DNA from: Verrucomicrobiota bacterium
Lineage (GTDB): Bacteria > Verrucomicrobiota > Verrucomicrobiia > Chthoniobacterales > UBA6821
Reading direction: 5' to 3'
Assembly: GCA_008932965.1 (NCBI GenBank)
Contig: WBXG01000016.1
Location: forward strand, 1-29,171
DNA: 29,171 bases
Both the position numbers and the translations under genes were made by a program. Of this stretch, positions 1 to 19,727 are shown piece by piece (the stretch's first letter is position 1; each line of letters starts with the position of its first letter). Under the pieces are notes generated by a model. It was not told the origin of the DNA. It made no database searches and saw only the letters and a program-made list of their open reading frames with translations.

Positions 1-114
1 TATTTTGACGCAAGGCTGTATGTTTCATACTGCCCGAGGAGCAATTCGAAGCTGACGCAGTATCCATCAGGTGTTCGCAAGCCGCAGCAGAATCGGTATG
101 AAATAGGCGGGTTA
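1..114 (+). repeat. MITE-like palindromic element, copy R1 (right part only, cut by window edge)
   Basis: Bases 1-114 align colinearly (about 93% identity by eye) with 17318-17431, the right half of copy R10. It ends in the family terminus GGTATGAAATAGGCGGGT followed by TA (113-114). Confidence 0.85.
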
Positions 115-171
115 GGCTAGCACATCAGATTTTCTGTTTCTATTTACGTTTTTCGGACAAGACCATTTCTA

Positions 172-1041
172 TCAAATATCATTTTTAAGCAATGCTGCTA
201 GGCGCTTTACAGCACGTCCTACTTTACGGTCCTCCATTAACTCCAAGGCCTCATTGAGAGGAAGAAGCCTACGAAGTCGAAGATGTTCCTCTGGCCAAAC
301 TCCAAGTAACTTCGAAATTTTCAGTGCATAGAGCTGCAAGAAACTTCCATTGCTCATTTGGCAACGAGTGTGTACATCAGCACGAATTGACCCTAATACC
401 CCACCCTCCTCGACAGCCTCCATTAAAGCTACTTCGTGAGCAGTCATTCCTGGCTCTTGCTGACCTTTGGGAAGAATCCAACGATTTCCTGAAGAGCTGG
501 TAATGAGGAGTACCTGTAATTTTCCATCTTTAATAACGTAGGGAAGAGCCCCTACCTGAGAAATTCCTTTTGATTCAGGTGCCCCATACATGGCGAGTGA
601 AATTGTTTCGTACTCTTCACGCCCTGTCACCTCTTCACCTAAAAATTCTAAATGCTCGAAAGCCTTACTAGCAGCAAGAGTAGGAAAATTAACTGTAGCT
701 AACATCAAAGGAGCATGCTCTCCTAAAAAAACATCTAATATGATTTTGAGTTTTTTTATTAAAAAAATGGAGCGATTCAAAAAAACACGTTGTCCTTCGG
801 TGAAGGGCCACAAAAAATCAAATTGAGCTTTTGATAATCTTACCTCTTTGGATTGAACTCGCTCATGAGATTCTTTGGGAACAACAAAATAGTCCCTGTT
901 CACCCGCTGTAGTAGCAAATCTCTTTTAGGATGCCGCAGAAAATAACCCTGCTCGATTTCCTGAGCTTTTATAGAGGCATAGAAGGGTGGTTTTCTTAAA
1001 ACAAGAAATGTACGCCGAAGGAGATCACGATTTGCTTTCAT
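172..1041 (-). CDS. CYTH (triphosphate-tunnel) domain fused to a Nudix hydrolase domain
   Basis: 289-aa ORF. The N-terminal half carries CYTH-type motifs (FDFLWPFTEGQRV, LDVFLGEHAPLMLATVNF, FLGEEVTGREEYETISLA). The C-terminal half has a Nudix box, PKGQQEPGMTAHEVALMEAVEEGGV, with the EE pair retained. Confidence 0.75.
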   Translation of the reverse strand: MKANRDLLRRTFLVLRKPPFYASIKAQEIEQGYFLRHPKRDLLLQRVNRDYFVVPKESHERVQSKEVRLSKAQFDFLWPFTEGQRVFLNRSIFLIKKLKIILDVFLGEHAPLMLATVNFPTLAASKAFEHLEFLGEEVTGREEYETISLAMYGAPESKGISQVGALPYVIKDGKLQVLLITSSSGNRWILPKGQQEPGMTAHEVALMEAVEEGGVLGSIRADVHTRCQMSNGSFLQLYALKISKLLGVWPEEHLRLRRLLPLNEALELMEDRKVGRAVKRLAALLKNDI

Positions 1042-1110
1042 GCAATGAAATTCGTATCACAAAGATTGACAATAGAACGAGATAATTCATGATGTAGCGC
1101 TCTATTTTAT

Positions 1111-1186
1111 GGTGGCCGTAGCTCAATGGTAGAGCTCCAGGTTGTGGTCCTGGCTGTTGCGGGTTCGAGTCCCGTCGGTCACCCCA
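1111..1186 (+). tRNA. tRNA-His (anticodon GTG), with encoded G-1 and CCA
   Basis: Cloverleaf folded by hand. Acceptor GTGGCCG/CGGTCAC with an extra 5' G pairing to C73 (a His identity feature). Anticodon arm CCAGG-TTGTGGT-CCTGG. T arm GCGGG-TTCGAGT-CCCGT. 3' CCA is encoded. Confidence 0.9.
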
Positions 1187-1268
1187 TAACCTCGTAAGAA
1201 TCTAGTGCCACGTAGAGATTATTAGAAGATGGTATGAGATTTTCACTCTCTTAAGATAGCACCTGTTC

Positions 1269-2417
1269 ATGAAACGCTACCAACTTCCACGATTCCTTCT
1301 TTTTCTTCTTTTTTTATTTTTCGTTGTTACAGGAATTTTCCTCTGGAAATTTTATCAAACCTCTCTTCTAGAAAAAAAAACTTATCAACAACTCCTCCCT
1401 CCCCCTTCTACACTCCTAACGCGAGCAGACTCCTCCTCCTGTCGCAATCCTTCTCTCCAAGTTCTTGATGAAGAATTCACAAGTTTAATAGCACACATTG
1501 TTCCCTCTGTAGTCAGTATCATTACTACCGATGCTCCAAATTGCGAAGATTTGTTACGAGAGTTTTTAGGCCTTTCCCATGTCCAGGAAGCCTCTCCAAA
1601 CAAAATGGGCTCAGGCATGATCGTTTCGAAAAGTGGAGATATCATTACCAATTGGCACGTTGTTAAAGATGCCATCGAAGTCCATGCTCAATTAGATGAC
1701 GGACGATCTCTGCCTACAAAGCTTGTTGGTTTCGATGATCGAGCCGATATTGCGATTCTTAAAATCCAAGCTGACCATTTAATTCCTATCCCTTTTGGTA
1801 ACTCTGATCAGGTCAAAGTAGGACAAACTGTCGTGGCAATCGGTAATCCTTTTGGACTACAAGAAACCGTTACCGAAGGCATTATTAGTGCCAAAGGCCG
1901 CCGTGCTTTGAGCGAGACAGTGAATGAATTCTTTCAGACAAGTGCTCTGATTAATCCCGGCAATTCAGGTGGACCTTTGGTGAATATTCACGGAGAGGTG
2001 ATTGGCATCAATAACTTCATCATTAGTCGTAGCGGTGGTGCTGAAGGGCTTGGATTTGCAATCCCGTCAAATGTAGCACGTCGTGTCTATAACGATATTA
2101 CAAGGTATGGTCACGTGCTCCGTCCTTGGTTTGGGGTTGTTCTACGACCGCTCAATACTCCTCTTGCCAAGCAGCTTGGCTTAACAAGAACCTCAGGAGC
2201 GCTCATTGCAGCAACACTTTTAAATTCTCCTGCTGAAAAAGCTGGTCTCAAGCCAGGTGATGTTATTACTTCTTTCAACCATCATTCTATAAATGACCCG
2301 ATTGACCTGCGTCATTGTTTAGAACAAACGGAAGTAGGAGAAAAAGTAACCCTCACTATTGAGCGATATGGTGACACAGTCTCTTTGAGTACCTCCATTC
2401 AAGAAGAACCAAAGTAA
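1269..2417 (+). CDS. HtrA/DegS-family periplasmic serine protease with a single PDZ domain
   Basis: 382-aa ORF with an N-terminal hydrophobic anchor (FLLFLLFLFFVVTGIFLW). Catalytic triad contexts are TNWHVV, DIAILK and GNSGGPLVN. The C-terminal region is PDZ-like (SPAEKAGLKPGDVITSFN). Confidence 0.85.
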   Translation: MKRYQLPRFLLFLLFLFFVVTGIFLWKFYQTSLLEKKTYQQLLPPPSTLLTRADSSSCRNPSLQVLDEEFTSLIAHIVPSVVSIITTDAPNCEDLLREFLGLSHVQEASPNKMGSGMIVSKSGDIITNWHVVKDAIEVHAQLDDGRSLPTKLVGFDDRADIAILKIQADHLIPIPFGNSDQVKVGQTVVAIGNPFGLQETVTEGIISAKGRRALSETVNEFFQTSALINPGNSGGPLVNIHGEVIGINNFIISRSGGAEGLGFAIPSNVARRVYNDITRYGHVLRPWFGVVLRPLNTPLAKQLGLTRTSGALIAATLLNSPAEKAGLKPGDVITSFNHHSINDPIDLRHCLEQTEVGEKVTLTIERYGDTVSLSTSIQEEPK

Positions 2418-2559
2418 AGATCCCGTAGATTCAAAAGTGAAGTCCCCTTCCATAAAACAAAAATACTCTTGTGAGCAACCAAGAACAGAGTTCCTTACTT
2501 GACTTGAACTTCGCTTCCGGGCAGGCTCCCATCATTTACAAGAAAGCAGGTGAATTTAC

Positions 2560-2757
2560 ATGCCAGAAGTTATAGTCCGTAAGGGCGAACCAATAGATAG
2601 AGCGCTCAAGCGTCTCAAGAGCAAACTTGACACCGAGGGAATCCTCGATGAGGTAAGGCGTCTTCGTGCCTTCGAAACCCCAACGCAACGGGTTAAACGC
2701 AAAGCAAAATTAAGTGCTAAGAAAGCGAAAGCAAAACAACGCTATAACGCTCATTAG
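2560..2757 (+). CDS. rpsU: 30S ribosomal protein S21
   Basis: 65-aa basic ORF MPEVIVRKGEPIDRALKRLKSKL...RAFETPTQRVKRK, typical of S21. AGGTGA lies upstream of the ATG. Confidence 0.95.
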   Translation: MPEVIVRKGEPIDRALKRLKSKLDTEGILDEVRRLRAFETPTQRVKRKAKLSAKKAKAKQRYNAH

Positions 2758-2770
2758 TCCCTGACATTAC

Positions 2771-3829
2771 ATGTTGGAAAAAAAAACTTCCCTCATTATC
2801 GTTGGCTGCGGCTTTCTTGGGAAGGCCGCAGCTTCACTTTTTTGTTCACAAGGATACTCCGTCTTAGGAATTGTTCGGACTCCTCTAGAACCGATATTTC
2901 ATACTGATCATAACGAGGAAGTCGTGAAGGCTAGTGCGGTCATGCGAGTGATGAATTCTCACGACATAGGTGCGGATACAGACTACCCGAGGAAGACTTC
3001 ATGCTCAACGCAGCATCCATCTGGTTTCACGGTCTCCACAAGTGATGAACATCAAACATCCGGCCTAGTAAAACATTCTCCTACGGAGAAATCATATTCT
3101 CTCTTAAGCTGTGATGTTACAGATCCTTTGGCTGTTGATGCCCTCACAAAGAACATACCCCCGGAATCACTATTGATTTATTGCGTGAGCTCTGGAAAGG
3201 GAGGAAGTGATACCTATGCTGCAATCTATCGCGATGGTTTGGAACGTCTCTTACACTCATGGAAGCCCAAGCGAGCGCTTTTTGTGAGCAGCACCTCGGT
3301 TTATGGACAGAAAGATGGAGAAATTGTTACCGAATCCTCTTCTGCAGAACCTGACCGTGAAACAGGAAGAATTCTCTTGGAGGCCGAAAAGATTGCTCTT
3401 CAATCAGGGGGAGTAGTAGCACGTCTTTCAGGTATTTATGGGCCAGGCCGTTCGATGCTTTTAAGGAAGTTTCTTGAGGGAACAGCAACCCTTGAAAATG
3501 GAGGGGGACGACTCATTAACCAAATACACCGTGATGATGCTGCATCTGCTTTATTTTGTCTTATGACACATGAAAATGCATCAGGAATTTATAATGTCAC
3601 TGATGATACTCCAGCATCCCAGAGGGAAGTTTATGCATGGATTTCAGAGGCTCTTCAAAAACCACTTCCACCTCCAGGCCCAGCTGATCTGAATCGCAAG
3701 CGAGGTTGGACTTCCAAACAAATCTCTAATGAAAAGCTACATACCCTTGGTTGGGCTCCTCAATTTCCAAGTTATCGTGAAGCATTGCCAGAGTTAATAG
3801 AAGAGATACTGTTGAAGAGAGAAGATTAA
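2771..3829 (+). CDS. NAD(P)-binding SDR-family epimerase/dehydratase-like protein carrying a 60-codon in-frame repeat insertion
   Basis: Rossmann motif IIVGCGFLGKAAA. Downstream motifs are FVSSTSVYG, ARLSGIYGPGR, NQIHRDDAA and YNVTDD. Codons about 39-99 are encoded by repeat copy R2. Confidence 0.7.
   Translation: MLEKKTSLIIVGCGFLGKAAASLFCSQGYSVLGIVRTPLEPIFHTDHNEEVVKASAVMRVMNSHDIGADTDYPRKTSCSTQHPSGFTVSTSDEHQTSGLVKHSPTEKSYSLLSCDVTDPLAVDALTKNIPPESLLIYCVSSGKGGSDTYAAIYRDGLERLLHSWKPKRALFVSSTSVYGQKDGEIVTESSSAEPDRETGRILLEAEKIALQSGGVVARLSGIYGPGRSMLLRKFLEGTATLENGGGRLINQIHRDDAASALFCLMTHENASGIYNVTDDTPASQREVYAWISEALQKPLPPPGPADLNRKRGWTSKQISNEKLHTLGWAPQFPSYREALPELIEEILLKRED
2886..3067 (+). mobile_element. 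MITE-like palindromic element, copy R2, inside the epimerase CDS and in frame
   Basis: TA-GAACCGATATTTCATACTGATCATAACGAGG...CCCGAGGAAGACTTCATGCTCAACGCAGCATCCATCTGG...CATCCGGCC-TA aligns along its whole length with R6 (15054-15235). The TA-to-TA offset is 180 bp, or 60 codons. Confidence 0.85.
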
Positions 3830-3935
3830 AAAAAAGATGATACGGTCTGCTAGAGGGGAATAAAATTCCATCGTTTTGCCAAGACCACACAGACAATCTA
3901 TGACCTTCTCTTCCCACTCTTTTGTTTCATAAAAA

Positions 3936-5297
3936 ATGAAGAAGATTTTATTGATCGTTGATGATGAAAAACATACTCGCGAGGGCCTTAAAGAGGCCTT
4001 CAGCGAAAATTATGATGTGTATAGTGCTGCAACACTAGACGGGGCTTTAGCAACCCTAGGAGCGGATCCAGCTGATGTATTGATCACTGATTTAAAACTA
4101 GGAGGAGAGAATGGTATGGAACTCATGGAAAAAGCCCTAGCGCTACCAAAGCCTCCCATTTGTATTATCATGACTGCATATGGATCTGTAGATACCGCAG
4201 TAGAAGCGATGAGGCGTGGAGCTTATGATTTTGTGACAAAACCAGTAAATATTGAACGCCTAGAAATGCTGGTGCGTCGCTCGCTACGGGAACAAGCCAT
4301 AGAACAAGAAAATGGAGAGCTCAAACAGGAAATCCAAAAAAAATATGGATTGGAGCAAATGATTGGAACCTCCCCTATCATGACCACCGTCTTTGATACG
4401 ATTCGTCAGGTTGCCCCATCCAAAGCAACTATCCTCATCGAGGGAGAAAGCGGAACGGGAAAGGAAGTTGCAGCAAAAGCAATTCACATGCTCAGTCCTC
4501 GATCTCAAGAACGCTTTGTTGCCGTTCACTGTGCTTCTTTGTCACCCCAACTTTTGGAAAGCGAACTCTTCGGACATGAAAAAGGGGCTTTTACTGGAGC
4601 CACAGAGCGCCGCATTGGTCGTTTTGAACAAGCTCGTGGGGGGACTCTTTTCTTGGATGAAATTGGAGAGATCGATCCAAGCGTTCAGGTTAAGATTTTA
4701 CGTATTCTTGGAGAACATACATTTGAACGTGTTGGAGGCAATCAAACATTATCAACGGATGTTCGTCTGATTGCAGCTACTAACCGTGATTTAAAAAAAA
4801 TGACTACTGAAGGGACATTTCGTGAAGATCTTTTTTTTCGTCTCAATGTCGTTCCGCTCTTGATGCCCCCGCTACGTGATCGTAAAGAGGATATCCCTCT
4901 GCTCACGGAGGCTTTTTTAATCGAGCTAGCAAAAGAACATGAAAAACCACAGCGTCTTTTTTCCTCTGAAGCTATGTCTCTGCTTATAAAGTACCCATGG
5001 CCAGGAAATGTTCGTGAACTTCGCACTGCCGTGGAACATGCTATTGTACTTGGTCGAGAACAAGAATTACAAATTCGTGATCTTCCATCACGTATGTGTA
5101 ACACCACCCTTTTGGAACCTGCCGAACACTCCATTACTCATTCCCCCGACTCACTCAATTTACAACAGGCTACCTCAACCATGATTGACCGTGCACTCAA
5201 AGAATGCAGTGGCAACCGTTCTCAAGCAGCAGCAAAACTGGGTATTAGCAGACGCACCTTACACCGGCACTTGGCTTCTGGTAGGTCTAGCGAATGA
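3936..5297 (+). CDS. Sigma-54-dependent response regulator (REC + AAA+ + Fis-type HTH; NtrC/AtoC family)
   Basis: The receiver has DD, ITDLKL, MTAYG and TKP. The AAA+ domain has Walker A GESGTGKE, the GAFTGA loop ([15 protein letters not shown]) and Walker B LFLDEIGE. The C-terminal HTH reads [20 protein letters not shown]. Confidence 0.92.
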
Positions 5298-5414
5298 ACT
5301 CATCAATAATAAGATCCGATCTATAAAAATAGAGGTAGGAAAAGAGTTCCTTGACTCAAAAAGTCGTACGACAAGAGCCAAACAGCGTTCTATTAATCGT
5401 AGAAATAAGTCAAT

Positions 5415-5443
5415 TTGTATACGGGATTCAAAAAAATTAATAT
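5415..5443 (+). promoter_or_regulatory. Possible sigma-70-type promoter for rpsA (TTGTAT-N17-TAATAT)
   Basis: A hexamer pair with 17-nt spacing lies about 100 nt upstream of the rpsA ATG. The AT-rich context means it could be a chance match. Confidence 0.25.
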
Positions 5444-5541
5444 TGCCATATTCCTTTTTTGGGATAATGTATGCGGCTTCCATCGTCTGCTTTGAAAGGG
5501 CGACGATTAATGGTTTAGACCATTTTGGAATTTTAAATATC

Positions 5542-7239
5542 ATGACAACTAGCGCTAGCATGGCTGATCTTCAGCAACTCATTGCCAACTCGGTTAAAAA
5601 TTACCGTGAAGGAAGTATCGTAAAAGGACATATCCTTGAAAAAAGACCGAAAGAATTTTTAGTTGATATCGGTTACAAATCCGAAGGAGTCATTCCAGCA
5701 TCAGAATTTGATCATCCCGAGGACATTCAGTTAGGGGATGAAGTGGAAGTTCTTTTAGCCCGTTTAGAGAATGATCAAGGAATGGTGGTCCTCTCTAAAT
5801 TAAAAGCAGCCCAACGTCAAAACTGGGATAAAATTTGTAAACTTTTTGAAGAAGAGGGAATTATTCAAGGAAAAGTGAAGGCCGTTGTTAAAGGTGGCCT
5901 TACTGTTGATGTCGGCGTCGAAGCCTTTCTACCTGCTTCTCAGGTCGATGTTACTCCTCCAAAAGATCTTCAGCAATTTGTTGGAAACACCTACGATTTT
6001 AAAATTGTGAAGCTCAATGAAGATCGCAAGAATGTTGTTCTTAGCCGTCGAGAATTAATTGAAGCTGTTCGTAGTACACGTCGTCAGGATTTCCTCACCA
6101 CTGTCAATCCTGGGGATGTCGTTGAAGGAACCGTCAAAAATATCACTGATTTTGGAGCATTTATCGATCTCGATGGCATTGATGGACTCCTCCATATTAC
6201 TGATATGTCATGGGCGCGTCTCACCCACCCAAGTCAAGCCGTTAAGCCTGGGGATCGCCTCAGGGTGGTTGTTCTTGAAATCAATAAGGAAAAAGAACGT
6301 ATTTCACTTGGACTCAAACAACTTCAGGATAACCCTTGGGATAAAATTGAAGAGCGCTTCCCAACTGGCACTAAAGTCAAGGGGACCATTAGTAACCTCA
6401 TGCCCTATGGAGCTTTTGTAGAAATCGAAGAAGGAATCGAGGGTCTTATTCATGTCTCAGAACTCTCCTGGACAAAACGAATCGTCCGTCCTTCAGATGT
6501 ACTTACCCTTGGTCAGGCTATCGAGGCCGTTGTATTGGGTGTCAACAAAGAGGATCAAAAAATCTCACTTGGAGTGCGCCAGTTAGAATCAAACCCATGG
6601 GATGAAATCGAACAGCGCTTCATGATTGGGAAACAGGTGAAAGGAAAAGTCCGTAACATGACCGCTTACGGTGCCTTTATTGAACTTGAGGAGGGAATTG
6701 ACGGAATGGTTCATGTCTCAGATCTTTCATGGAATCGCAAGATCAGTCATCCAAGTGAAGTTCTTAAGAAAAATGAGGAAATTGAAGCTATTGTAATCGA
6801 CATTGATAAGGCAAATCAACGCATTAGCCTTGGAGTCAAGCAGCTCGAGGAAGATCCTTGGAAAGAAATCGATGCTCACTACAAGATTGGTGATATCGTT
6901 CAAGGAAAAGTAAGCAAGATTGCTAACTTCGGAGCCTTTGTAGAACTTATGGGTAGCATTGATGGACTTGTTCATATTTCTCAGATCAGTGAAGATCGGG
7001 TTGAAAAAGTCAAGGATGTCCTAAAAATTGGAGATGAGATTGAGGCACGTGTAATCAAGATTGATAAAATTGAACGACGTCTAGGACTCTCTATCAAAGC
7101 AACAACATACAGTGATGAGGCCTTGATTAAAGAAACAGAGGTACTCGATTCATTACGTGGCTCAGATGATATGGTTAGCTTTGGAGCAGCTCTTTCAGCT
7201 GCTGAAGAAGAATACCGACCAGGAGAAAAAGGGGCTTAA
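5542..7239 (+). CDS. rpsA: 30S ribosomal protein S1 (six S1 domains)
   Basis: Six tandem S1/OB repeats (G.V....V..I..FGAF(V/I).L....GL(V/I)H(V/I)S). The start was moved to the ATG at 5542 (MTTSASMADLQQL) because the 5185 ORF extension overlaps the upstream regulator and has no S1-like sequence. Confidence 0.93.
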   Translation: MTTSASMADLQQLIANSVKNYREGSIVKGHILEKRPKEFLVDIGYKSEGVIPASEFDHPEDIQLGDEVEVLLARLENDQGMVVLSKLKAAQRQNWDKICKLFEEEGIIQGKVKAVVKGGLTVDVGVEAFLPASQVDVTPPKDLQQFVGNTYDFKIVKLNEDRKNVVLSRRELIEAVRSTRRQDFLTTVNPGDVVEGTVKNITDFGAFIDLDGIDGLLHITDMSWARLTHPSQAVKPGDRLRVVVLEINKEKERISLGLKQLQDNPWDKIEERFPTGTKVKGTISNLMPYGAFVEIEEGIEGLIHVSELSWTKRIVRPSDVLTLGQAIEAVVLGVNKEDQKISLGVRQLESNPWDEIEQRFMIGKQVKGKVRNMTAYGAFIELEEGIDGMVHVSDLSWNRKISHPSEVLKKNEEIEAIVIDIDKANQRISLGVKQLEEDPWKEIDAHYKIGDIVQGKVSKIANFGAFVELMGSIDGLVHISQISEDRVEKVKDVLKIGDEIEARVIKIDKIERRLGLSIKATTYSDEALIKETEVLDSLRGSDDMVSFGAALSAAEEEYRPGEKGA

Positions 7240-7585
7240 TTCAGGAACTATCCTTTAAAGCTCTTTTTGATTCTCTCCGATTCTGATACTTGCTCTGATG
7301 AGTCATAAGGTACCTTCTCGAAGGTCTTGATACAATCTGGTCAAAACATTGTGATAATAAGCGTCAAGAGAGTTCTTACTGTTCCATCACAATTGTGGAC
7401 CAATGGAGCTGCTCGAGAGGTCTCAAAAAGAACTTCTTGATGGAGCATCCAGTAATTGAGTTACTCACTGCTCGAACGATGAATGGAATATTCATGGGGC
7501 CAAGAGTTTCTTTGAGTTTTATTTTAATCAGACTTTCAAGGAACAGAATAATCTATAACATTAACTTCTCAAAATTATAATTCCC

Positions 7586-7921
7586 ATGCAAATCACAGCT
7601 TACCTAAAAACAACGTGCGGTTGGAGCAACGGAGTACGTGCCGTTATGACCAAGTACTCACTCCTCTACTCAGAAAAAGATATTATCAAAAACCCTGCGT
7701 TCCGTTTTGAAATGGAACAAAAAAGTGGTCAGCCTCTTTCTCCCTGTGTCGAAATTGACGGGGTAATGTTAGCAGATATTAGTGGGGAAGAGTTAGAATC
7801 CTACCTACTGGAGCACAAACTTGTAGGAACCTCTGCCGTACCTACCGATGTACCACTCAATGCCCCTTGTTCTGATGAACAGCATGCTGCAATGGCTGGA
7901 AAAGTGAAGATGCAGTTTTAG
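7586..7921 (+). CDS. Glutaredoxin-like thioredoxin-fold protein (CxxS motif)
   Basis: 111-aa ORF. ITAYLKTTCGWSNGV (CGWS in place of CxxC) and a downstream SPCVEIDGVML fit the glutaredoxin fold pattern. Confidence 0.55.
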   Translation: MQITAYLKTTCGWSNGVRAVMTKYSLLYSEKDIIKNPAFRFEMEQKSGQPLSPCVEIDGVMLADISGEELESYLLEHKLVGTSAVPTDVPLNAPCSDEQHAAMAGKVKMQF

Positions 7922-7986
7922 AGTATCTTAAAAAAGTTACTGCTCCGCTTGAACGTGCAAAATGCGTTACTCGCCTCCTCGAGCAC

Positions 7987-8337
7987 TAGCCCGGATATTT
8001 CATCCCGATTCTGCTGCGGCTGCGAACACCTGATGGATACTGCGTCAGCTTCGAACTACTCCTCGGGCAGTATGACTACCGGCAGCGGGGAAGCTGCGGG
8101 AGAGATTGTCGCAAAGCGTCAACCCGAAGGGCGAGACGAGCGGGAGCGAGCGAGTCAAACTACAGCCGTCGTCGCAATCCATCACCTTCGTTGACTCGCT
8201 CACTCCCCCTCGTCTCGCCCTTTCAGGGCTGCCTTCTAAAGCCAGGGCAATCTCCACCGCGGTCTCCCGACCGCCGGTGGTGTCTGTATCAGGATTCGCG
8301 GCGCCTCGCAATGAACCAGTATGAAGTAGGCGGGTTA
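7987..8337 (-). mobile_element. MITE-like element, copy R3, expanded 351-bp form in inverted orientation
   Basis: The outer parts match the reverse complement of R10. Two extra modules of about 85 bp are present. They include a 33-bp imperfect inverted repeat (8126-8158 versus 8191-8223, 30/33 complementary) around a 32-nt loop. TA flanks lie at 7987-7988 and 8336-8337. Confidence 0.85.
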
Positions 8338-8359
8338 AGAAACTCTACAGTCCCTGGTA

Positions 8360-9460: not shown

Positions 9461-9590
9461 AATAAAAAGGGGCTAGAAATTCAAATGTTTCAACATTAGA
9501 GCCTCCTGCTTCAAAGTGCGATCTCCAAATTTAAGCATCGCGTTTCCTTTCTAGAGCCGCTATCATGCATCATTTGTTAACAGCTCTTCT

Positions 9591-11450: not shown

Positions 11451-11458
11451 ATGAGCTT

Positions 11459-11731
11459 TAACCCGGATATTTCATACTGATCGTGACGAGGAGGCCGTGA
11501 AGGCTGATGGGGCACCACCGGCGGTCGGGAGACCGTGGGGGAGACTGCCCTGGCTTTAGGGGGCAGCCCTGAAAGGGCGAGACGAGCGGGAGATAGCGAA
11601 GTCAACGCAGACAAGCATTTTGACGACGGCTGTGTGTGTACACACTGCCTGAGGATGACTTCGAGCTTGGGCGAAGCATCTACCCTTGCTTCCAGGCTTC
11701 CGAAATAGATTGGTATAAAATATCCAGGTGA
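11459..11731 (+). mobile_element. MITE-like element, copy R4, 273-bp form with one extra module
   Basis: TA-ACCCGGATATTTCATACTGATCGTGACGAGGAGG matches R6. An internal module of about 90 bp (CCACCGGCGGTCGGGAGACCG...GAAAGGGCGAGACGAGCGGG) is the reverse complement of a module in R3. The central GTGTGTGTACACAC is present. The right end is degenerate (GGTATAAAATATCCAGGT-GA). Confidence 0.85.
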
Positions 11732-11736
11732 GATTG

Positions 11737-13131: not shown

Positions 13132-13237
13132 AGAATAGTGATTTTTCCCATTCTATTAACAAATAATTTTTATATCGAGTGTGGAGTGGTTATTGTACTA
13201 GATTTGGTGCATCACAGGAACCTCAACCCGATTGATT

Positions 13238-13564
13238 ATGTTTGAATCAGGAGAAAAAATTGTCTGTATCAATGATACATTCGAAGCATTGCACCGAAAA
13301 ATTTATCGTGAGCTCCCCAAAAAAGGGAGTGTATATACGGTTCGAGAATGTTCTCTCGGTCGACTTAAAACAGGTGCCGCTAATCCTGGAGTGAGTTACC
13401 GTATTCTTTTAGAAGAATTGTTTAATGATCTGGATCCCTACATGGACGAAGGAATGGCTGAGGAACTCGGTTTTCGATCAGATCGCTTTGCTCCCGTCAT
13501 CGGCATCGAAGAATCTGAGGAAGCAAAAAATACAGAAGCCATCGGAGTCAACTATGAGTCATGA
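13238..13564 (+). CDS. Hypothetical small protein
   Basis: 108-aa ORF from the ATG at 13238 (the ORF track starts at a TTG two codons upstream). No recognisable motif. The codon usage looks like neighbouring genes. Confidence 0.35.
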   Translation: MFESGEKIVCINDTFEALHRKIYRELPKKGSVYTVRECSLGRLKTGAANPGVSYRILLEELFNDLDPYMDEGMAEELGFRSDRFAPVIGIEESEEAKNTEAIGVNYES

Positions 13565-13579
13565 TGATAACTCGATGTG

Positions 13580-13614
13580 AGCTGCAGCGGAATCAGTATG
13601 AAATATGCAGGCTA
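13580..13614. repeat. Solo terminal fragment of the MITE-like family (R5)
   Basis: AGCTGCAGCGGAATCAGTATGAAATATGCAGGC-TA matches the right end of R1/R10 (AGCCGCAGCAGAATCGGTATGAAATAGGCGGGT-TA). Confidence 0.7.
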
Positions 13615-13634
13615 GGAATGTGCAAGAATGTTTC

Positions 13635-15428
13635 CTAGAAATCACGATAGTATGGTTTTTGATAGGTTTCCATTAACTGTCTATAAATTCCGATTTGGGG
13701 ACCGATTTTAGACCTGCAATTCTCAATTGCATGGAGCATTTCACTCCATTCTTTTTTTTGTTCTGGAAAACCTTGGTAATTTTCAATTTTAGATCGGAGT
13801 GCGATCACCTTATTGCAAGAAACTCGAAGATCTTCTGCCTTAGTAATGACCTCTCCATAGGCCATAGAAGCCTCGGAAGTGCTCACCTTTCGAGCCACTT
13901 GAAGAGCGACGAGGTATTCTCTTTCACAATGAGTGAAATCTGATACTGCTTTGGATATTTCGAACTTTTCTTTAAAAGAGTTCCCGTCTAGTGGCAGTTT
14001 TTCCTGAGATTTTTTTAAGAGAGACGTGCGTTCCGTGACTTCAGCTGCAGTGCCTTCAAATGAGTAGGATTTTCTTAAGCCTGCTCCTACAAAAGGTCTT
14101 ACTGAAGAAAATTTCTTTTTGGGAGACGGAGTTTCGTCAGCAGTAATTACTCCTCCCTTTTTGATAGAATCTAACAAAGGAGTTGTTTCCGCTGGTTCTA
14201 TTTTAGTCCCTGCAAATCGATTGTTTGAACTACCTAATCCTCTTGGAGCATTCTTTGTATTAGGTGAACTAAGTGAATATAATCTGTGTTCATCACCTCT
14301 ATGATCTATTGAAGTTTTTTCTATGCTTCCGTACATATCATTACCTTTTCCTAAAACAAGAGAGGCGTACAAGTCGGTTTTACTCGAAGCGTTACCCATC
14401 ACTCTTTCTTCCTCTCTATGTACTAGGAGATGCTCGTTTTCATTCAGAATCAAGGCTCTTCTTGGTGAGTAGAATATTCCCATTAAAAAAAGACCTATCC
14501 ATTCAAAAGAAGCCCCTGCTGCCTCTTCTAATCCCATGCTAGCAGTGCAAGAAGAGGCCACAGCATGAAAGGTGATAATATTTGATTTTAAATAAGGATC
14601 GCAACAGGCTGCATGATTTTCTGAAATAAAATCAATAAAATCTGTTCCGCTACCATCTTCCAGAAAGGGAGAGTCTTCATTTTGATTTCTTTCTTCAGTG
14701 ATGATTTTGGATTCCCTCCACTCGGCTTTATGCTCTTGAAGAGTCTGATCAGCCCTCTTTAATGATGAGATGTTTTGCAACCAGTGAGAATAATAACTTG
14801 CAGAAGTACGATCTACAAAAGGGATGGATCTACTGTTATTAGCACTCCTAGAAAGCAGATAGTAATACTCGCCAGGATTACCCATGCGTATGACATCCTC
14901 CATTGAAGCGGCATACAAGTTATTGAAATCATTTTGTGCCACTGCATTGAGAAAAGAAGAGTAGCTTAGATTACTGAGATCGAGATTCGATTCATGACTC
15001 AAAGCGTTGTGTAAAAAAACCAAATTCAGCAACCATACCAAACAAGTTAGAACTAGCCCGAATATTTCATACTGATCGTGACGAGGAGGCTGCGAAAGCT
15101 GATGGGGCAAGGCGAGCGATGAAGTCTGACGACGGCTGTGTGTGTACACACTGCCCGAGGAAGACTTCGAGATCAACGCAGCATCCATCTGACTTCCCGG
15201 TCTCCGCAGTAGATCAGAATGAAATAGGCGGGCTAGCCCGAATATTTCATACTGAAGTGTCATGAGGCGCTGTACAAAGCTTGTTAGTGCAAGGCGGCCG
15301 AAGGATTGGAATGCCGGGCTGTAGGAGTCCCTGCAGCTCGAGTCACGATGTGAATCTAGCGAAGCATCTCTCTGGCTTTCTGCTCTCCGCAGGTAATAAG
15401 TATTAAACATGCTGGTTACACTTGTCAT
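13635..15428 (-). CDS. Orphan hypothetical protein; the 5' 125 codons are encoded by two tandem repeat elements, so the true start is uncertain
   Basis: 597-codon ORF with no recognisable domain. Codons 4-125 lie in R7+R6. A hydrophobic stretch, VLTCLVWLLNLVFL, follows directly. Alternative starts are TTG at 15041 and ATG at 14903. Confidence 0.45.
   Translation of the reverse strand: MTSVTSMFNTYYLRRAESQRDASLDSHRDSSCRDSYSPAFQSFGRLALTSFVQRLMTLQYEIFGLARLFHSDLLRRPGSQMDAALISKSSSGSVYTHSRRQTSSLALPHQLSQPPRHDQYEIFGLVLTCLVWLLNLVFLHNALSHESNLDLSNLSYSSFLNAVAQNDFNNLYAASMEDVIRMGNPGEYYYLLSRSANNSRSIPFVDRTSASYYSHWLQNISSLKRADQTLQEHKAEWRESKIITEERNQNEDSPFLEDGSGTDFIDFISENHAACCDPYLKSNIITFHAVASSCTASMGLEEAAGASFEWIGLFLMGIFYSPRRALILNENEHLLVHREEERVMGNASSKTDLYASLVLGKGNDMYGSIEKTSIDHRGDEHRLYSLSSPNTKNAPRGLGSSNNRFAGTKIEPAETTPLLDSIKKGGVITADETPSPKKKFSSVRPFVGAGLRKSYSFEGTAAEVTERTSLLKKSQEKLPLDGNSFKEKFEISKAVSDFTHCEREYLVALQVARKVSTSEASMAYGEVITKAEDLRVSCNKVIALRSKIENYQGFPEQKKEWSEMLHAIENCRSKIGPQIGIYRQLMETYQKPYYRDF
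15054..15235 (+). mobile_element. MITE-like element, copy R6 (182 bp, reference short form)
   Basis: TA-GCCCGAATATTTCATACTGATCGTGACGAGG...GTGTGTACACAC (15140-15151, exactly central)...GATCAGAATGAAATAGGCGGGC-TA. GC is 98/182 by hand count. Confidence 0.9.
15234..15418 (+). mobile_element. MITE-like element, copy R7, in tandem with R6 and sharing one TA
   Basis: It has the same left end, TA-GCCCGAATATTTCATACTGA. The interior is diverged, with GCGAAGCATCT shared with R4. The right end is degenerate (GTATTAAACATGCTGGT-TA). Confidence 0.8.
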
Positions 15429-15558
15429 TATAGTAAAAAATATGTTCTAATTGATTCTTGTTTAGTGCTTGCTGTGTACTTTAAAAATAGGAAAAAGCTC
15501 CCATTGTTGGCGACAACGGTGGATGCCGCATAATTAAACAGCCTTTTAAAAAAAGCTT

Positions 15559-15631
15559 GGGGGTATAGCTCAACGGTTAGAGCAGCCGGCTCATAACTGG
15601 TTGGTTCCTGGTTCGAATCCAGGTACCCCCA
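15559..15631 (+). tRNA. tRNA with CAT anticodon (elongator Met or lysidine-type Ile2; not an initiator)
   Basis: Acceptor GGGGGTA/TACCCCC with a paired 1:72. D arm GCTC-AACGGTTA-GAGC. Anticodon loop CTCATAA. T arm CCTGG-TTCGAAT-CCAGG. No CCA is encoded. Confidence 0.88.
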
Positions 15632-15633
15632 CT

Positions 15634-15649
15634 TAACCCGGATATTTCA
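15634..15649. repeat. Solo left-type terminus of the MITE-like family (R8), 3 nt after the tRNA 3' end
   Basis: TA-ACCCGGATATTTCA is identical to the first 16 nt of R4. Similarity fades after that. Confidence 0.55.
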
Positions 15650-15765
15650 ATGGTTGCCGGTAGTGATGAGTTCTCAGTTGTCAGAAGATTACATTACGTT
15701 AGCATAAGTCATCTATAATCCTTCAGTTTTGGGAAAAGAAATTTATAAATTCAAATTTTCACATT

Positions 15766-17010
15766 ATGAGCTCTTCCGTTACGTTTGAACAACCTGATAC
15801 ACTTGCCCGCACGTTACAAGGTCTAGAACAAACATCCTCCGAACTTGGAGAAAAAATGTCACTTAACATGGGGCCTTCCCATCCTGCTACCCATGGTGTC
15901 TTAAGACTAGAGCTTGACCTTGATGGTGAAATTATTACCAAGGTTGTCACTCATATCGGCTACCTCCATCGAGGTGATGAAAAAATTGCAGAGAACATGA
16001 CTTACAATCAGTTCATTCCCTACACTGACCGACTCGACTACCTTGCTCCACTTGCCAATAATGTTGCCTACGCACTTGCTGTTGAAAAGCTTCTTGGATG
16101 GGAACTTCCTGCACGTGGAAAAACAATTCGTGTCATTTGCTGCGAATTAGCTCGGATCTCTGCCCACCTTCTTGGGATTGGTGCTGCTAGCATGGATATC
16201 GGAGCTCTTTCGATTTTCTTATACACCTTTGCGGAACGTGAAAAGATTTATAACCTCTGCGAGCTCCTTACTGGAGCACGCTTCACCACAAGCTACACGC
16301 GCGTGGGTGGACTCGTTCGTGATCTTCCTGAGGGCTTTGCCGAGCAGCTTAAAGAATTTTTAAAGAATTTTAAACCAACCCTCGAAGAAATTAATAATCT
16401 TCTCGCACGTAATCGTATTTTTGTGGACCGAACACGTGATCTTGGAATCATTTCCAAAAGTGATGCAATCAGCTATGCCTTAACTGGCCCTAATCTACGC
16501 GCTTCAGGAGTAGAGCACGATCTTCGCAAAGCAAATCCTTACCTCGACTATGAGCGTTATGATTTTGAAATTCCCACTGGAAGTGTTGGTGATTGTTATG
16601 ATCGCTACCTTGTTCGCATGGAGGAGATGCGTCAAAGTGTACGTATTCTAGAGCAAGCAATCCATTCTCTCCCCTCCGGGCCAATCAATGTGGTGGATGC
16701 TAAAAATATACCCCCAGGTAAGGAAGCGGTAATGGAAAAAATGGAAGAACTCATCCATCATTTTATTATTACTACCGAAGGAATCGATGCTCCAGCTGGA
16801 GAAATTTATTTTGGTGCTGAGAATCCCAAAGGAGAACTTGGTTTTTACATCAATAGCAAAGGGGGAGGAGTCCCCTATCGGCTTAAAATTCGTGGACCTT
16901 CTTTCATGAACTGTAGCATCCTTCAAAAGATACTTCCTGGGTGCATGATCTCTGATATTGTGGCCATTAATGGAAGTTTGGATTTTGTATTTGGAGAATG
17001 TGATCGTTAG
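15766..17010 (+). CDS. nuoD: NADH-quinone oxidoreductase subunit D (complex I 49-kDa subunit)
   Basis: 414 aa. LNMGPSHPATHGVLRL, YTDRLDYLAPLANN and C-terminal DFVFGECDR are NuoD hallmarks. The NiFe-hydrogenase cysteine motifs are absent. Confidence 0.9.
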   Translation: MSSSVTFEQPDTLARTLQGLEQTSSELGEKMSLNMGPSHPATHGVLRLELDLDGEIITKVVTHIGYLHRGDEKIAENMTYNQFIPYTDRLDYLAPLANNVAYALAVEKLLGWELPARGKTIRVICCELARISAHLLGIGAASMDIGALSIFLYTFAEREKIYNLCELLTGARFTTSYTRVGGLVRDLPEGFAEQLKEFLKNFKPTLEEINNLLARNRIFVDRTRDLGIISKSDAISYALTGPNLRASGVEHDLRKANPYLDYERYDFEIPTGSVGDCYDRYLVRMEEMRQSVRILEQAIHSLPSGPINVVDAKNIPPGKEAVMEKMEELIHHFIITTEGIDAPAGEIYFGAENPKGELGFYINSKGGGVPYRLKIRGPSFMNCSILQKILPGCMISDIVAINGSLDFVFGECDR

Positions 17011-17123
17011 TAGTCCAGATACCCATTCCATTCTTTAATAGGACTATTGCGGCTTGTTCTCTTGGTCCCTGACTTGGGTATTCATCCCAATCAATTGCTG
17101 AGACTGAGAAGAAAGAGGGATAC

Positions 17124-17155
17124 GGAGTCACGATTAGGATGAAATTTCCGGGTTA
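17124..17155. repeat. Solo right-type terminus of the MITE-like family (R9)
   Basis: GGAGTCACGATTAGGATGAAATTTCCGGGT-TA. Its reverse complement matches the canonical left arm ACCCGGATATTTCATACTGATCGTGAC at about 26/31 positions. Confidence 0.65.
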
Positions 17156-17249
17156 ACTTTTTGTTACCAAGATAATCTTTTTATGTTTGAGGATTGTGGT
17201 TCCTCTAAGAGTATGATTTCATAGTGAGCCGTTTTTCCTTAATTCGGGC

Positions 17250-17431
17250 TAGACCGCATATTTCATACTGGTTCGTCGCGAGGCGCCGCGAATCCTGATG
17301 CAGACAAGGAAGGTGATGGATTGCGACGACGGCTGTATGTTTTATACTGCCCAAGGAGCAATTCGAAGCTAACGCAGTATCCATCAGGTGTTCGCAAGCC
17401 GCAGCAGAATCGGTATGAAATAGGTGGGCTA
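17250..17431 (+). mobile_element. MITE-like element, copy R10 (182 bp, second subfamily)
   Basis: TA-GACCGCATATTTCATACTGG...GGTATGAAATAGGTGGGC-TA. The right half is about 93% identical to R1, and the whole element matches R3 in reverse. Confidence 0.9.
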
Positions 17432-17465
17432 AGACACTTCCTCTTATTTTTAATCATTTTTTATC

Positions 17466-18851
17466 ATGCATATAACTACAGAACAAAAAGAAAACTCTGT
17501 GTTGGATCTTCATATCGAGTTACCTCCTGAATACTTTAAAAAAGAGTGGAAGAAGATTGCTCAAGAGTATGTTCGATTAGCCCGTATTCCAGGATTTCGA
17601 AAAGGAAAGGCTCCCCTTAGTGCTATTGAAAAAAAATATGGTGCGGATATTGAGAAAGAAGCACTCCAAAAAACAATTGAATCAGCCTTGCGTGAAGTTA
17701 TTCGAGATAAGCAGTTCAACCTTGCTCAATATCCCGAGCTGAAAGAAAAGCAGCTTGAGAAGGATCATACCCTTCGTTTCACCGTAACTATTGTAATGAG
17801 TCCAGAGGTTGATCTACCAGAATATCGTGGGCTGTCTCTCTCCGTAGAAAAGGAAATGGTGAGTGATAAACGGCTGGAGGAATTATTAGAAAAAATGCGC
17901 AATGACTTTGCAGAATTTATCAATGTCGAAGAACGCGGGCTTGAGATGGGAGATTTTGCAGTATTGGATTATGATGCTACAGTTAATGGACAAGGGTTAC
18001 TCGAAATTGATTCCGAAATACCTTTAAGCTTTGTAGGTGGAAAAAATCGTTGGATGCAGTTAGCAGCACAATATCCTATCCCTGGACTTGCAGAGTCTCT
18101 TCTAGGATTAAAACCACAGGAATCACGGACCTCTTCTGTTACCTATCCCTCCGATTTCTCAGAAAAAGCTCTTCAATCCATTACAGTGACCTACGAAGTC
18201 ACACTACATGAAATTAAAAATCGCCAACCTGCACCCCTAGACGACACTCTTGCAGCTCGGGTTAAACCTGGCATGACACTGGAAGCGTTACGCCAAGAGA
18301 TGAGGGATCAATTGGTATCCTTTGTAGAACAACAATTTCAAACCAATCTTCGCTCCGCTCTTATTCAAGAATTACTCACAAAGATTCCATGTGAAGCTCC
18401 CACTCCCCTAGTGCAACAGGAGAGTCATTCTATCCTTGAGAAAATTATTCGCGAAAACCAATCACGTGGTGTTTCCGAGGAGGAAATTCGCTCTCATCAG
18501 CAAGAGCTCCTGGAGTCAGCTCAAAAAAGTGCAGATGAAAAGATGCGCCTTCATTTTATATTGAATGCTATTGCTGCTAAAGAAAAGATTGAGGTCACTC
18601 CTGAAGAATTCAATTCCTACCTTACTCTTCTTGCCGAGAGATATAAAATGACCCTTAAAAAACTCATTAGTGAGCTTCAAAAAAATCGGGCTCTTGGGGG
18701 TATTCAAGAAGAACTTCTTTTTAATAAGACCTTAGAATTTTTAACAACGCATTCAAACGTTACTGAAATTCCCTCCTCGAAAGAGACTGGAAAGTCCCAC
18801 ACCCATGATCATGCTCAACCTCATGTACATGGTCCTCACTGCAAGCACTAA
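17466..18851 (+). CDS. tig: Trigger factor with a His-rich C-terminal tail
   Basis: 461 aa. The TF signature IPGFRKGKAP sits in the N-terminal ribosome-binding domain. An FKBP-like middle domain is followed by clpP, as in many bacteria. Confidence 0.9.
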   Translation: MHITTEQKENSVLDLHIELPPEYFKKEWKKIAQEYVRLARIPGFRKGKAPLSAIEKKYGADIEKEALQKTIESALREVIRDKQFNLAQYPELKEKQLEKDHTLRFTVTIVMSPEVDLPEYRGLSLSVEKEMVSDKRLEELLEKMRNDFAEFINVEERGLEMGDFAVLDYDATVNGQGLLEIDSEIPLSFVGGKNRWMQLAAQYPIPGLAESLLGLKPQESRTSSVTYPSDFSEKALQSITVTYEVTLHEIKNRQPAPLDDTLAARVKPGMTLEALRQEMRDQLVSFVEQQFQTNLRSALIQELLTKIPCEAPTPLVQQESHSILEKIIRENQSRGVSEEEIRSHQQELLESAQKSADEKMRLHFILNAIAAKEKIEVTPEEFNSYLTLLAERYKMTLKKLISELQKNRALGGIQEELLFNKTLEFLTTHSNVTEIPSSKETGKSHTHDHAQPHVHGPHCKH

Positions 18852-18855
18852 TGAG

Positions 18856-18877
18856 TTCGGGCTAGACTGTATTCATG
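18856..18877. repeat. 22-bp end-TA-end junction relic of the MITE-like family (R11)
   Basis: TTCGGGC-TA-GACTGTATTCATG parallels 17243-17266 (TTCGGGC-TA-GACCGCATATTTCAT). Confidence 0.45.
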
Positions 18878-18945
18878 AAAACGATTACATCTTTACCGCT
18901 TGATTTTAACGAATTCCTTGGCTTCATCCCTAAATTTACTCATCT

Positions 18946-19563
18946 ATGTTAGTCCCCGTTGTTATTGAACAGTCTGGTCGTGGTGAACGCAGCTACGATA
19001 TCTACTCACGTCTTTTGAAAGACCGTATTATTTTCATCGGGACCTCTATTGATGATCATGTTGCTAATTTAGTGATCGCTCAAATGCTCTTCCTTCAAAT
19101 GGAAGATCCAAAAAAAGATATTCATCTTTACATTAACTCCCCAGGGGGCTCGGTAACTGCAGGTCTTGCTATCTATGACACCATGCAATTTGTCACTTGT
19201 GATGTGACGACCTACTGCATGGGAATGGCTGCGAGCATGGGAGCTGTGATCCTTGCCGCTGGCACCAAGGGAAAACGTTTTGCACTTCCCAATTCTGATA
19301 TCATGATCCACCAAGTCTCTGGTGGTGCCCAAGGAACCGCTAGTGATGTAGAACGAAGTGTTGAGTTTATGTACAAATTAAAACGGCGTCTCAATAGACT
19401 TCTGGCTCACCATACTGGAAAAGATGTTAAGGTAGTAGAGCATGATGCTGATCGTGACTATTACATGTCGGCTGAGGAAGCGTGTAAATATGGCCTTGTG
19501 GACAAAGTTGTCGAGTCACGTAAAGAACTCAAAAATCCACCAGAAAGCAGTGGAAAAAAATAG
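18946..19563 (+). CDS. clpP: ATP-dependent Clp protease proteolytic subunit
   Basis: 205 aa. [29 protein letters not shown], active-site context GMAASMGA and HQVSGG. Confidence 0.95.
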
Positions 19564-19623
19564 TTTTTAATGAGTAGTGGGTGACCTCTTTCTAGGGCAT
19601 CCTCAAAAATAAATGGACTATAG

Positions 19624-19727
19624 GAAGCAGGCATTTTGCTGATGAGCGAGGAAGACTTCAAACTCAATGCAGTATTCATTTAGCTTCGTAGTTTCCTCGT
19701 CACAATCAGTATAAAATATCTGGATTA
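19624..19727 (+). repeat. 5'-truncated, internally deleted copy of the MITE-like family (R12)
   Basis: AAGCAGGCATTTTGCTGATGAGCGAGGAAGACTTCAAACTCAATGCAGTATTCAT...CAATCAGTATAAAATATCTGGAT-TA aligns with the right halves of R4 and R6. The central palindrome is missing. Confidence 0.65.

Follow-up and report, generated by a model that had tools for sequence, protein, structure and literature searches.

ERIC/IRU, YPAL of Yersinia and the Correia elements of Neisseria are repeats of 100 to 200 bp that have terminal inverted repeats and a TA-containing target. Among the insertion sequences (ISs), IS630 targets CTAG and duplicates TA, and members of the IS1380 family duplicate 4 to 5 bp of their target. 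The duplication made by IS1247 is 5 bp (PMC3281130). The IS1380 transposases serve as the prokaryotic outgroup of piggyBac, whose termini are 5'-CCC and whose 4-bp duplication is TTAA or, rarely, TTAG or CTAA (PMC10813416). Few or no miniature derivatives of IS1380 have been documented; none was found in the literature searched, which does not prove their absence. Here we report a previously undescribed family of miniature inverted-repeat transposable elements (MITEs) in an uncultured freshwater lineage of the Verrucomicrobia and link it to IS1380, the bacterial relatives of piggyBac. The window analyzed is the whole stretch of 29,171 nucleotides of contig WBXG01000016.1 (assembly GCA_008932965.1), and the elements, R1 to R12, lie in its first 20 kb.

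The ERIC/IRU, YPAL and Correia elements are, like the window family, whole-length imperfect palindromes that fold as hairpins, are dense between genes and have no obvious resident transposase. They are unrelated to it in sequence and belong with another transposase family, whereas the window family has a 4-bp duplication, no orientation bias with respect to transcription, and modular long forms with an insert of about 90 nt. With IS1380A of Acetobacter pasteurianus and with four full-length IS1380-family ISs recovered here from other organisms (loci L169, L045, L243 and L242), the elements share CCC/CG-rich termini, a 4-bp duplication and the terminal repeat, which is identical over 16 nt to that of L045 and L169. 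However, they have no transposase gene, they measure 176 to 370 bp instead of 1.7 to 2.1 kb, and their interior is a long hairpin unrelated to the interior of the ISs. Eukaryotic piggyBac and its MITEs are similar in their termini beginning with CCC and in a 4-bp duplication of the TTAA type (TTAA in 46 of 94 copies of the window family, with TTAG and CTAA variants), and the piggyBac transposase lineage is related to IS1380 (PMC10813416); the window family differs in being prokaryotic and in having a target relaxed to YTAR, with CTAG common.

One repeat family with a 4-bp target duplication

A profile hidden Markov model of 182 positions was made from R2, R6, R7 and R10 and used with nhmmer. 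These four full copies (182 to 185 bp) were recovered at their listed coordinates with E values of 1e-47 to 2e-55, and exact-seed repeat finding tied the coordinates of the loci together as direct and inverted families. The end motif CGNATATTTCATACTG, with at most two mismatches, occurs 12 times in the window, against 0.10 occurrences expected by chance. R9 and R11 are recognizable only by eye or by a short inverted-repeat match. All 12 loci are copies or remnants of a real repeat family, as the first-pass annotation of this DNA had proposed in counting 12 copies or fragments in the first 20 kb. About 8% of these 20 kb consists of elements, and the GC content of the eight largest copies together is 52.6%, compared with 42.4% in the rest of the window. 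The GC content of 54% reported for R6 and the perfect palindrome GTGTGTACACAC at its midpoint (15140-15151) were both reproduced, and the description of the family as small, GC-rich, palindromic, noncoding mobile repeats of the MITE type is supported. The identity between R1 and R10, given there as about 93%, was measured as 90% over 114 nt.

The basic unit is an imperfect palindrome of 176 bp, CCCGSATATTTCATACTG...CAGTATGAAATATSCGGG (CCCG...CGGG), and the net insertion is 180 bp including the duplicated YTAR. CCCGSATATTTCATACTG forms the terminal inverted repeat at both ends, and the first 20 pairs of the model are nearly invariant. The elements are noncoding and small, with size classes of 182, about 273 and 351 to 377 bp. 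The copies fall into at least four subfamilies: A (R6), B (R10 and R1), C (R7) and D. Their ends, the apex (GGC-t-GTATG...CATAC-t-GCC) and the internal-loop motifs AAGG in the left arm and ACGCAG and CGAGGA in the right arm are common to the subfamilies, while the stems differ in sequence between subfamilies yet still pair. Chimeras between subfamilies also exist.

To define the target duplication, we compared the two 4-mers of each copy, each composed of one outside base, the TA and one inside base. The two 4-mers were identical in 25 of 36 full copies. In a larger set of 94 copies aligned with a covariance model, 67 had identical 4-mers, where permutation gave a mean of 35.9 (p < 5e-5), and the identical pairs were TTAA (46 copies), CTAG (12), TTAG (8) and TTAC (1). 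The nine non-palindromic pairs, TTAG and TTAC, are direct repeats. None of the 94 copies has an inverted non-palindromic pair such as TTAG...CTAA, the arrangement to be expected of an extra base that was part of the terminal inverted repeat. Within a single subfamily in a single genome, the inner bases covary with the outer flanks. Since the non-palindromic 4-mers are direct and the inner bases change with the flanks, the element proper is the 176-bp CCCG...CGGG unit. The target duplication is a 4-bp YTAR, mostly TTAA or CTAG, and the flanking TA is its center, not the 2-bp TA duplication that had been assumed in the first reading. Tandem copies, as in R6-R7 and in strain alleles at the R4 site, have one 4-mer in common.

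Full-length IS1380-family elements with the same ends

Locus L169, which was fetched by the end motif alone, reads CTAG|CCCGGATATTTCATACTGAG ... GGTGTATGAAATATGCGGG|CTAG around an open reading frame (ORF) of 480 amino acids (aa), with the left end read as CTAG|CCCGGATATTTCATAC. The product of this ORF matches PF13701 (E = 8.6e-131) and NF033539, the NCBIfam equivalog for the IS1380-family transposase (E = 1.5e-103). It is 46 to 50% identical to annotated IS1380-family plasmid transposases and 46.5% identical to that of IS1380A, whose terminal repeat, CGCGGAAATCTCACA, agrees with the MITE end in 11 of 16 positions. A spacer of 4 bp, TCGA, separates two tandem copies of IS1380A. In L169 (843-1775), the IS1380-family element, in a high-GC contig, adjoins a gene with a Druantia DruA domain (PF14236, E = 5e-27).

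A tblastn search found related transposase genes in three further loci selected by the motif, four such loci in all. L045, from a metagenome-assembled genome (MAG) of the Pedosphaerales (Verrucomicrobia), holds an element of 1.8 kb; its 16-nt repeats are perfect and do not differ from the MITE repeats, and CTAG flanks it on either side. The same terminal repeat is flanked on both sides by TTAG in L243, a contig of 553 kb, and by CTAA in L242, a contig of 205 kb. Together with L234-L241, these are the full-length ISs that share the MITE ends, and all are from other organisms. In L235-L241 and L204, which are short metagenome contigs of 2 to 3 kb with the same IS, the 4-mers on the two sides do not match; the flanks of a multi-copy IS on such contigs are likely to be chimeric, assembled from different insertions, and L237-L241 and L204 were set aside.

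Because the same 16-nt ends and the same 4-bp duplication occur on ISs that encode IS1380-family DDE transposases, the repeats are best explained as non-autonomous MITEs derived from IS1380-family (piggyBac-like) insertion sequences, and we put the probability of this explanation at roughly 0.85. The first-pass annotation had assigned the mobilization to an IS630/Tc1-mariner-type transposase; the 16-nt repeat instead flanks IS1380-family transposases. The full-length IS that it envisaged, with the same terminal repeats, does exist, although none was found in the host lineage. It had also noted that the window contains no transposase. Pfam searches found none there, and tblastn with the IS1380 transposase gave no match; mobilization would therefore act in trans.

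On the model of known IS1380/piggyBac-type DDE transposases, an enzyme with its gene elsewhere would bind both terminal repeats of 16 to 18 nt, excise or copy the element, and integrate it at a YTAR with a 4-bp staggered cut. Repair of the stagger would duplicate the YTAR at both sides, which would account for the TA at every end and for the one 4-mer between tandem copies. The long hairpin of the interior may help to bring the ends together or may stabilize the element.

Several observations weigh against this derivation. An IS1380-type transposase was found neither in the window, nor in the strain contigs that two look-ups had returned (ten each), nor in about 0.8 Mb of repeat-rich, low-GC loci from related MAGs and metagenomes; the search covered about 60 kb of the host genome, and the negative is limited for the host lineage by the frequent loss of multi-copy ISs from MAGs. 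Transposases of other kinds were likewise absent from the window and from these 0.8 Mb. The full-length relatives with the identical repeat all come from high-GC organisms and not from the host lineage, and the similarity between MITE and IS is confined to the first 16 to 18 nt. Most of the duplications are palindromic (TTAA, CTAG), and the call of 4 bp rather than 2 bp rests on the nine non-palindromic cases and on two full-length ISs. No empty site at the nucleotide level was obtained from a near-identical strain, the best one being in a coding region of a species with about 83% identity. Finally, a plain MITE model would not lead one to expect a hairpin so strongly conserved, with loops rich in purines on one strand.

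Inverted pairs of ends lying 0.5 to 3.5 kb apart in MAG loci were also sought. They enclose only housekeeping genes (pyrB-like and cysD/N-like in L024; also L154) and were rejected.

An in-frame insertion in an SDR/epimerase gene

R2 (2886-3067, plus strand; nhmmer E = 1.2e-48) is a full but degenerated copy of 182 bp with CTAG on both sides. It lies in frame within the SDR/epimerase gene (2771-3829, plus strand), where it separates the Rossmann beta2 strand (GIVRTP) from the remainder of the domain. The first 38 residues of the product carry the Rossmann motif, the next 60 are encoded by R2, and the Pfam Epimerase match resumes at residue 103. Translation crosses R2 without a stop, and the net 180 nt are exactly 60 codons. 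The protein was called as 352 aa, with the frame intact, in all ten strain contigs returned.

The listed homologues of the protein are mostly 280 to 300 aa long, and precisely the 60 residues of R2 are missing from eight of eight aligned homologues (281 to 346 aa, the six closest being 288 to 291 aa; alignment A1). In the window, the site reads CCT-[CTAG]-AACCG...CCGGC-[CTAG]-TAAAA. Taking out 180 nt restores CCT-CTA-GTA-AAA, with the frame uninterrupted and CTAG contained. In the DNA of a sister species (L136), the site is unoccupied and reads CCT CTC ACT GGA. The same phase of the subfamily A consensus (alignment A3) is also free of stops by our own reading.

R2 is thus translated and could survive as a 60-residue insert in an enzyme because one frame of the element is open. 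The earlier statement that none of the copies is explained by a gene does not hold for R2. The clean insertion of 60 codons shows how elements of this kind can add peptide segments to proteins. In this respect, R2 alone resembles the Rickettsia palindromic elements, in which a palindromic repeat lies in frame within a protein gene and seems to be accepted as an added segment at the surface; their sequences are unrelated to R2, which is the one such case in the window.

Occupancy in strains and in a sister species

The sister species has 87% identity in trigger factor and about 83% nucleotide identity in genes. R10 is missing from it, and only 8 bp are present at the position of R12, which is absent. 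The R4 site there holds only a 30-nt end, and the site matching R5 holds an 80-nt left-end fragment (L121 3914-3993). At the positions of R6 and R7, the sister species has internally deleted copies, so that these insertions are older than the split. Some of its own copies occupy sites at which the window has none. The empty sites in relatives that the first reading had suggested looking for were found in part: R2, R10 and R12 are absent from the sister species, but no empty site was obtained from a near-identical strain. The intergenic alignments to the sister species, at about 83% identity, are too diverged to give nucleotide-exact empty sites at R4, R10, R12 and the L136 copies.

In one contig of the sister species, a 30-nt left end (L121 2113-2142) spans the 24-bp gap of two convergent genes. 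The TAG of this end appears to be the stop codon of a gene with a thioesterase domain.

Among strains with 99.5% identity, R4 is the sole variable site, and all other copies of the window are fixed in the strains seen. The alleles at the R4 site (window 11459-11731; L111 2333-2786; L113 2240-2786) consist of one long copy, as in the window, of a short and a long copy, or of two long copies, the tandems being joined by a common TTAA. The window allele is apparently a recombinant between two tandem copies.

The in-frame insertion of R2, the difference in occupancy from the sister species and the tandem copies that vary between strains show that the elements were mobile. The window copies are for the most part old: they occur as fixed copies in every strain seen, and several have decayed to solo ends.

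A hybrid element was seen in L112 (8213-8486; GCA_029866255.1), with a left part like R3/R4 and the right part of R10. Through it, tig is joined to another neighborhood (QueH, CDP-alcohol phosphatidyltransferase and others). The junction is either a recombination between copies or an assembly chimera.

Conservation of the hairpin

R6 and R10 are each predicted to fold as a single long hairpin, with energies of -85.6 kcal/mol (z = -7.0) and -76.8 kcal/mol (z = -5.6), respectively. Two of the checks that had been suggested, a profile search and folding, agree with the first reading, in that the copies are significantly similar and these two are predicted to form long hairpins. The predicted fold of R7 is no better than that of shuffled sequence (z = -1.2), and R7, R2 and several remnants have lost the fold.

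Covariation was analyzed in an alignment that was fitted to the structure model, with the strand of each copy chosen by score, so that both lean to pairing and to G-U, and with copies that are related to one another; in this alignment, 90.7% of the cells were paired, against 31 to 45% with slid partners, and changes on both sides occurred in 48 of 62 pairs. None of 500 shuffles reached the observed values. When one strand was used per copy and only the short forms were included, 26 of 42 interior pairs were compensatory, with 272 G-U against 132 A-C. A plain arm-against-arm alignment gave a smaller, modest excess of G-U (256 against 195). Of 43 copies that were folded, all except 3 gave a more stable structure on the defined plus strand, with a typical difference of 5 to 28 kcal/mol. 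RNAalifold on a MAFFT alignment of all subfamilies recovered the terminal and apical helices only, as the interiors misalign, and the covariance-model alignment was used instead.

We conclude that the hairpin has been maintained across four subfamilies by compensatory changes and that it is not an RNA gene transcribed by the host. Two causes of this maintenance remain: selection, either for end synapsis or for stability as single-stranded DNA or RNA, and template switching from arm to arm. A hairpin with 90-bp arms that is kept by compensation offers a tractable case of why bacterial MITEs retain structure.

The whole-length hairpin could be a functional single-stranded structure, of DNA or RNA, on one defined strand, needed for mobilization or recruited by the streamlined freshwater host. 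The covariation of the stems over four subfamilies and the conserved, asymmetric purine-rich loops and apex are the basis for this idea, which we regard as possible though unlikely. If it were true, it would explain a density of about one copy per 2 to 3 kb without a detectable resident transposase.

Placement at gene ends and possible host recruitment

Copies often abut the ends of ORFs, with the TAA or TAG of the duplicated YTAR as the stop codon; a distance of -2 was seen in about 10 of 56 cases, as judged from crude ORF calls. Many copies lie exactly at gene ends because TAA and TAG are compatible with the target and are regenerated by the duplication. With respect to flanking genes, the orientation of the copies is random by the same crude calls, 12 being co-oriented and 18 anti-oriented between tandem genes.

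It may be that the elements are mobile MITEs whose hairpin was also recruited by the host, as a terminator, an insulator or an mRNA-stabilizing hairpin at gene ends in a compact genome. The many copies at ORF ends whose TAR often serves as the stop codon, the fixation in all strains seen, the retention of copies at the R6/R7 positions in the sister species and the conserved structure are all in keeping with such a role. However, the placement at gene ends is equally expected from the YTAR target combined with purifying selection, no U-tract follows the hairpins, the orientation is random, and R7, R2 and several remnants have lost the fold. With the ORF calls also being crude, we consider recruitment of this kind quite unlikely.

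In each direction, the element has one open frame. On the minus strand, an ORF at 13635-15428 (597 aa) continues across R6 and R7, and its translation contains the end motif QYEIFGL twice. This ORF is 597, 517 or 422 aa long in different strain contigs, and its orthologue in the sister species has 366 aa. Its N-terminal part is probably an annotation artifact, a spurious extension produced by the open frame of the repeat. The elements thus mislead annotation, both by extending ORFs through R6 and R7 and by the translation of R2 inside an enzyme. They also break or misjoin metagenome assemblies, as may have happened at the hybrid junction of L112, and they are useful as strain markers.

Other possible origins of the repeats

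An origin from an IS5-family element would fit the target and the length of the duplication, since IS5 duplicates a 4-bp YTAR (PMC5009759) and IS711, of the same family, also uses YTAR (PMC2266754). However, the full-length elements recovered with CCCGSATATTTCATAC ends all encode a protein of the IS1380 family (NF033539 equivalog) and none encodes one of the IS5 type, and the terminal repeat resembles that of IS1380A, which makes an IS5 origin very unlikely.

On the other hand, the repeats might be structured RNA genes or cis-regulatory RNA hairpins, not mobile themselves, that are kept by selection on RNA structure. Their covariation, which the first reading had named as a finding that would speak for a structured RNA family instead of a mobile repeat, is indeed present: the z scores of -5.6 to -7.0, the 90.7% of paired cells, the 48 of 62 pairs changed on both sides, the 26 of 42 compensatory interior pairs with their G-U excess in the best-strand short forms (272 against 132), the strand that is more stable in all but 3 of 43 copies and the loop motifs conserved between subfamilies can all be read in that way. 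The alignment behind these values was nevertheless fitted to the model and its strands chosen by score, both of which lean to pairing and to G-U. In addition, the target duplications, the insertion within a gene, the tandem insertions and the differences in occupancy between species show mobility, orientation is random (12 against 18), and decayed copies and solo ends are common. The elements matched no Rfam family; two tRNAs alone reached the gathering threshold, and even at E <= 1 there were just chance matches to long hairpins. The covariation therefore coexists with clear mobility and does not replace the reading as mobile repeats, and we consider immobile RNA genes or regulatory hairpins highly improbable.

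IS630/Tc1-mariner-type MITEs that duplicate TA, often within CTAG, would explain the TA at every recognizable end and the frequent CTAG flanks, but they are most improbable, as the outside base on one side equals the inside base on the other in a direct repeat (TTAG/TTAG in 8 copies, TTAC/TTAC in 1, inverted pairs in 0), the inner bases vary together with the flanks in one subfamily and one genome, and the terminal repeat was found next to IS1380-family transposases and never next to the DDE_3 type. REP/RAYT elements, IS200/IS605-type palindromic elements and integron attC sites were ruled out by the size of the elements, by their terminal inverted repeats with target duplication and by their dispersed copies.

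Individual copies and long forms

Longer forms of the IS1380-type MITEs carry one or two copies of a GC-rich module of about 90 nt, termed M, in three arrangements. The module stands in the left arm after model position 56 in R4 (window 11513-11599) and R1, or reversed and just 3' of the apex in copies of 278 to 284 bp (e.g., L172 7313-7590 and L194), or in both places, with the two copies pairing with each other, in R3 (window 8127-8222) and in other forms of 351 to 377 bp (e.g., L196 1050-1426).

R1 (1-114, plus strand) represents the final 114 nt of a long-form copy, about 260 bp in full, whose left portion lies beyond the window start. It has the right arm of subfamily B and TTAG as its right 4-mer, and its bases 2-114 match model positions 70 to 182 (nhmmer E = 4e-23). 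The complete copy is present in strain contig L126 (5921-5973 plus 6050-6179), with the module of about 90 nt inserted at model position 56. A tRNA-His gene lies at 1112-1186, about 1 kb downstream of R1.

R3 (7987-8337, minus strand) is a long form of 351 bp with M in both arms and with CTAG and TTAA as flanking 4-mers. It was matched by nhmmer in three pieces (best E = 8e-17), its two module copies form inverted repeat I10 (8127-8158 with 8191-8222), and its predicted fold energy is -180 kcal/mol. Inverted repeat I1 joins R3 to R4 (11459-11731, plus strand), a long form of 273 bp whose left arm contains M past model position 56. The left 4-mer of R4 is TTAA and its right end is degenerate (TGAG). 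The nhmmer match of R4 consists of two pieces, model positions 1-56 and 58-179 (E = 4e-19 and 1e-11), and its covariance-model score is 74.6 bits.

R6 (15054-15235, plus strand) belongs to subfamily A, is intact at 182 bp and has CTAG at either side (nhmmer E = 2.1e-55; covariance model, 203.9 bits). It stands in tandem with R7 (15234-15418, plus strand), a degenerate 185-bp copy of subfamily C (nhmmer E = 1.3e-47), and the CTAG between them is common to both. R10 (17250-17431, plus strand; nhmmer E = 6.5e-48), an intact 182-bp copy of subfamily B, lies between nuoD and tig with the 4-mers CTAG and CTAA. R12 (19624-19727, plus strand; nhmmer E = 8.7e-9), between clpP and the ROK kinase gene, is the right half of a copy (model positions 102-181).

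The remaining loci are short and on the plus strand. R5 (13580-13614) is a 35-nt right-end remnant, or solo terminal repeat, with 84% identity to the end of R1 (repeat family D3) and a weak profile match (nhmmer E = 0.003 to 0.008). R8 (15633-15649), identified by direct reading of the sequence, is a solo left end, TTAA-CCCGGATATTTCA, and starts one base past the 3' end of tRNA-Met (15559-15632). R9 (17127-17156) is a right-end remnant, ...GGATGAAATTTCCGGG-TTAA, which was also read directly and which forms inverted repeat I13, with a 30-nt arm that is 90% complementary to the left end of R4. R11 (18856-18877), a degenerate junction remnant read directly as TTCGGG-CTAG-ACTGTATTCATG, resembles the junction to the left of R10 and gave no significant profile match.

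Host and distribution

The host is an uncultured freshwater bacterium of the Chthoniobacterales. The housekeeping genes of the window encode HtrA, S21, the SDR/epimerase, a sigma-54 activator, S1, LptF/G, NuoD, trigger factor, ClpP, the ROK kinase, YmdB, ParA, UbiA/MqnC-type proteins and NusA. Look-ups by exact protein returned ten contigs each, from lake metagenomes, with about 99.5% identity to the window; glutaredoxin gave a single short contig.

A scan for the end motif with one genome per species showed enrichment only in four MAGs of the Chthoniobacterales (Verrucomicrobiota), each with many full copies, and one orthologous stretch was 70 to 76% identical to the window. A scan of metagenomes with the same motif gave 96 loci, 57 of which contain the family, often in several copies per 10 kb. 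With both strands counted, the covariance model found 178 matches in 0.8 Mb of related loci. The family was seen, in many copies, only in Chthoniobacterales MAGs and lake metagenomes.

In the ribosomal protein S1 gene (window 5185-7239), the position of the start is ambiguous. The protein has 684 aa from a TTG codon in the window and 590 or 676 aa in strain contigs, and its longer versions overlap the end of the sigma-54 activator gene.

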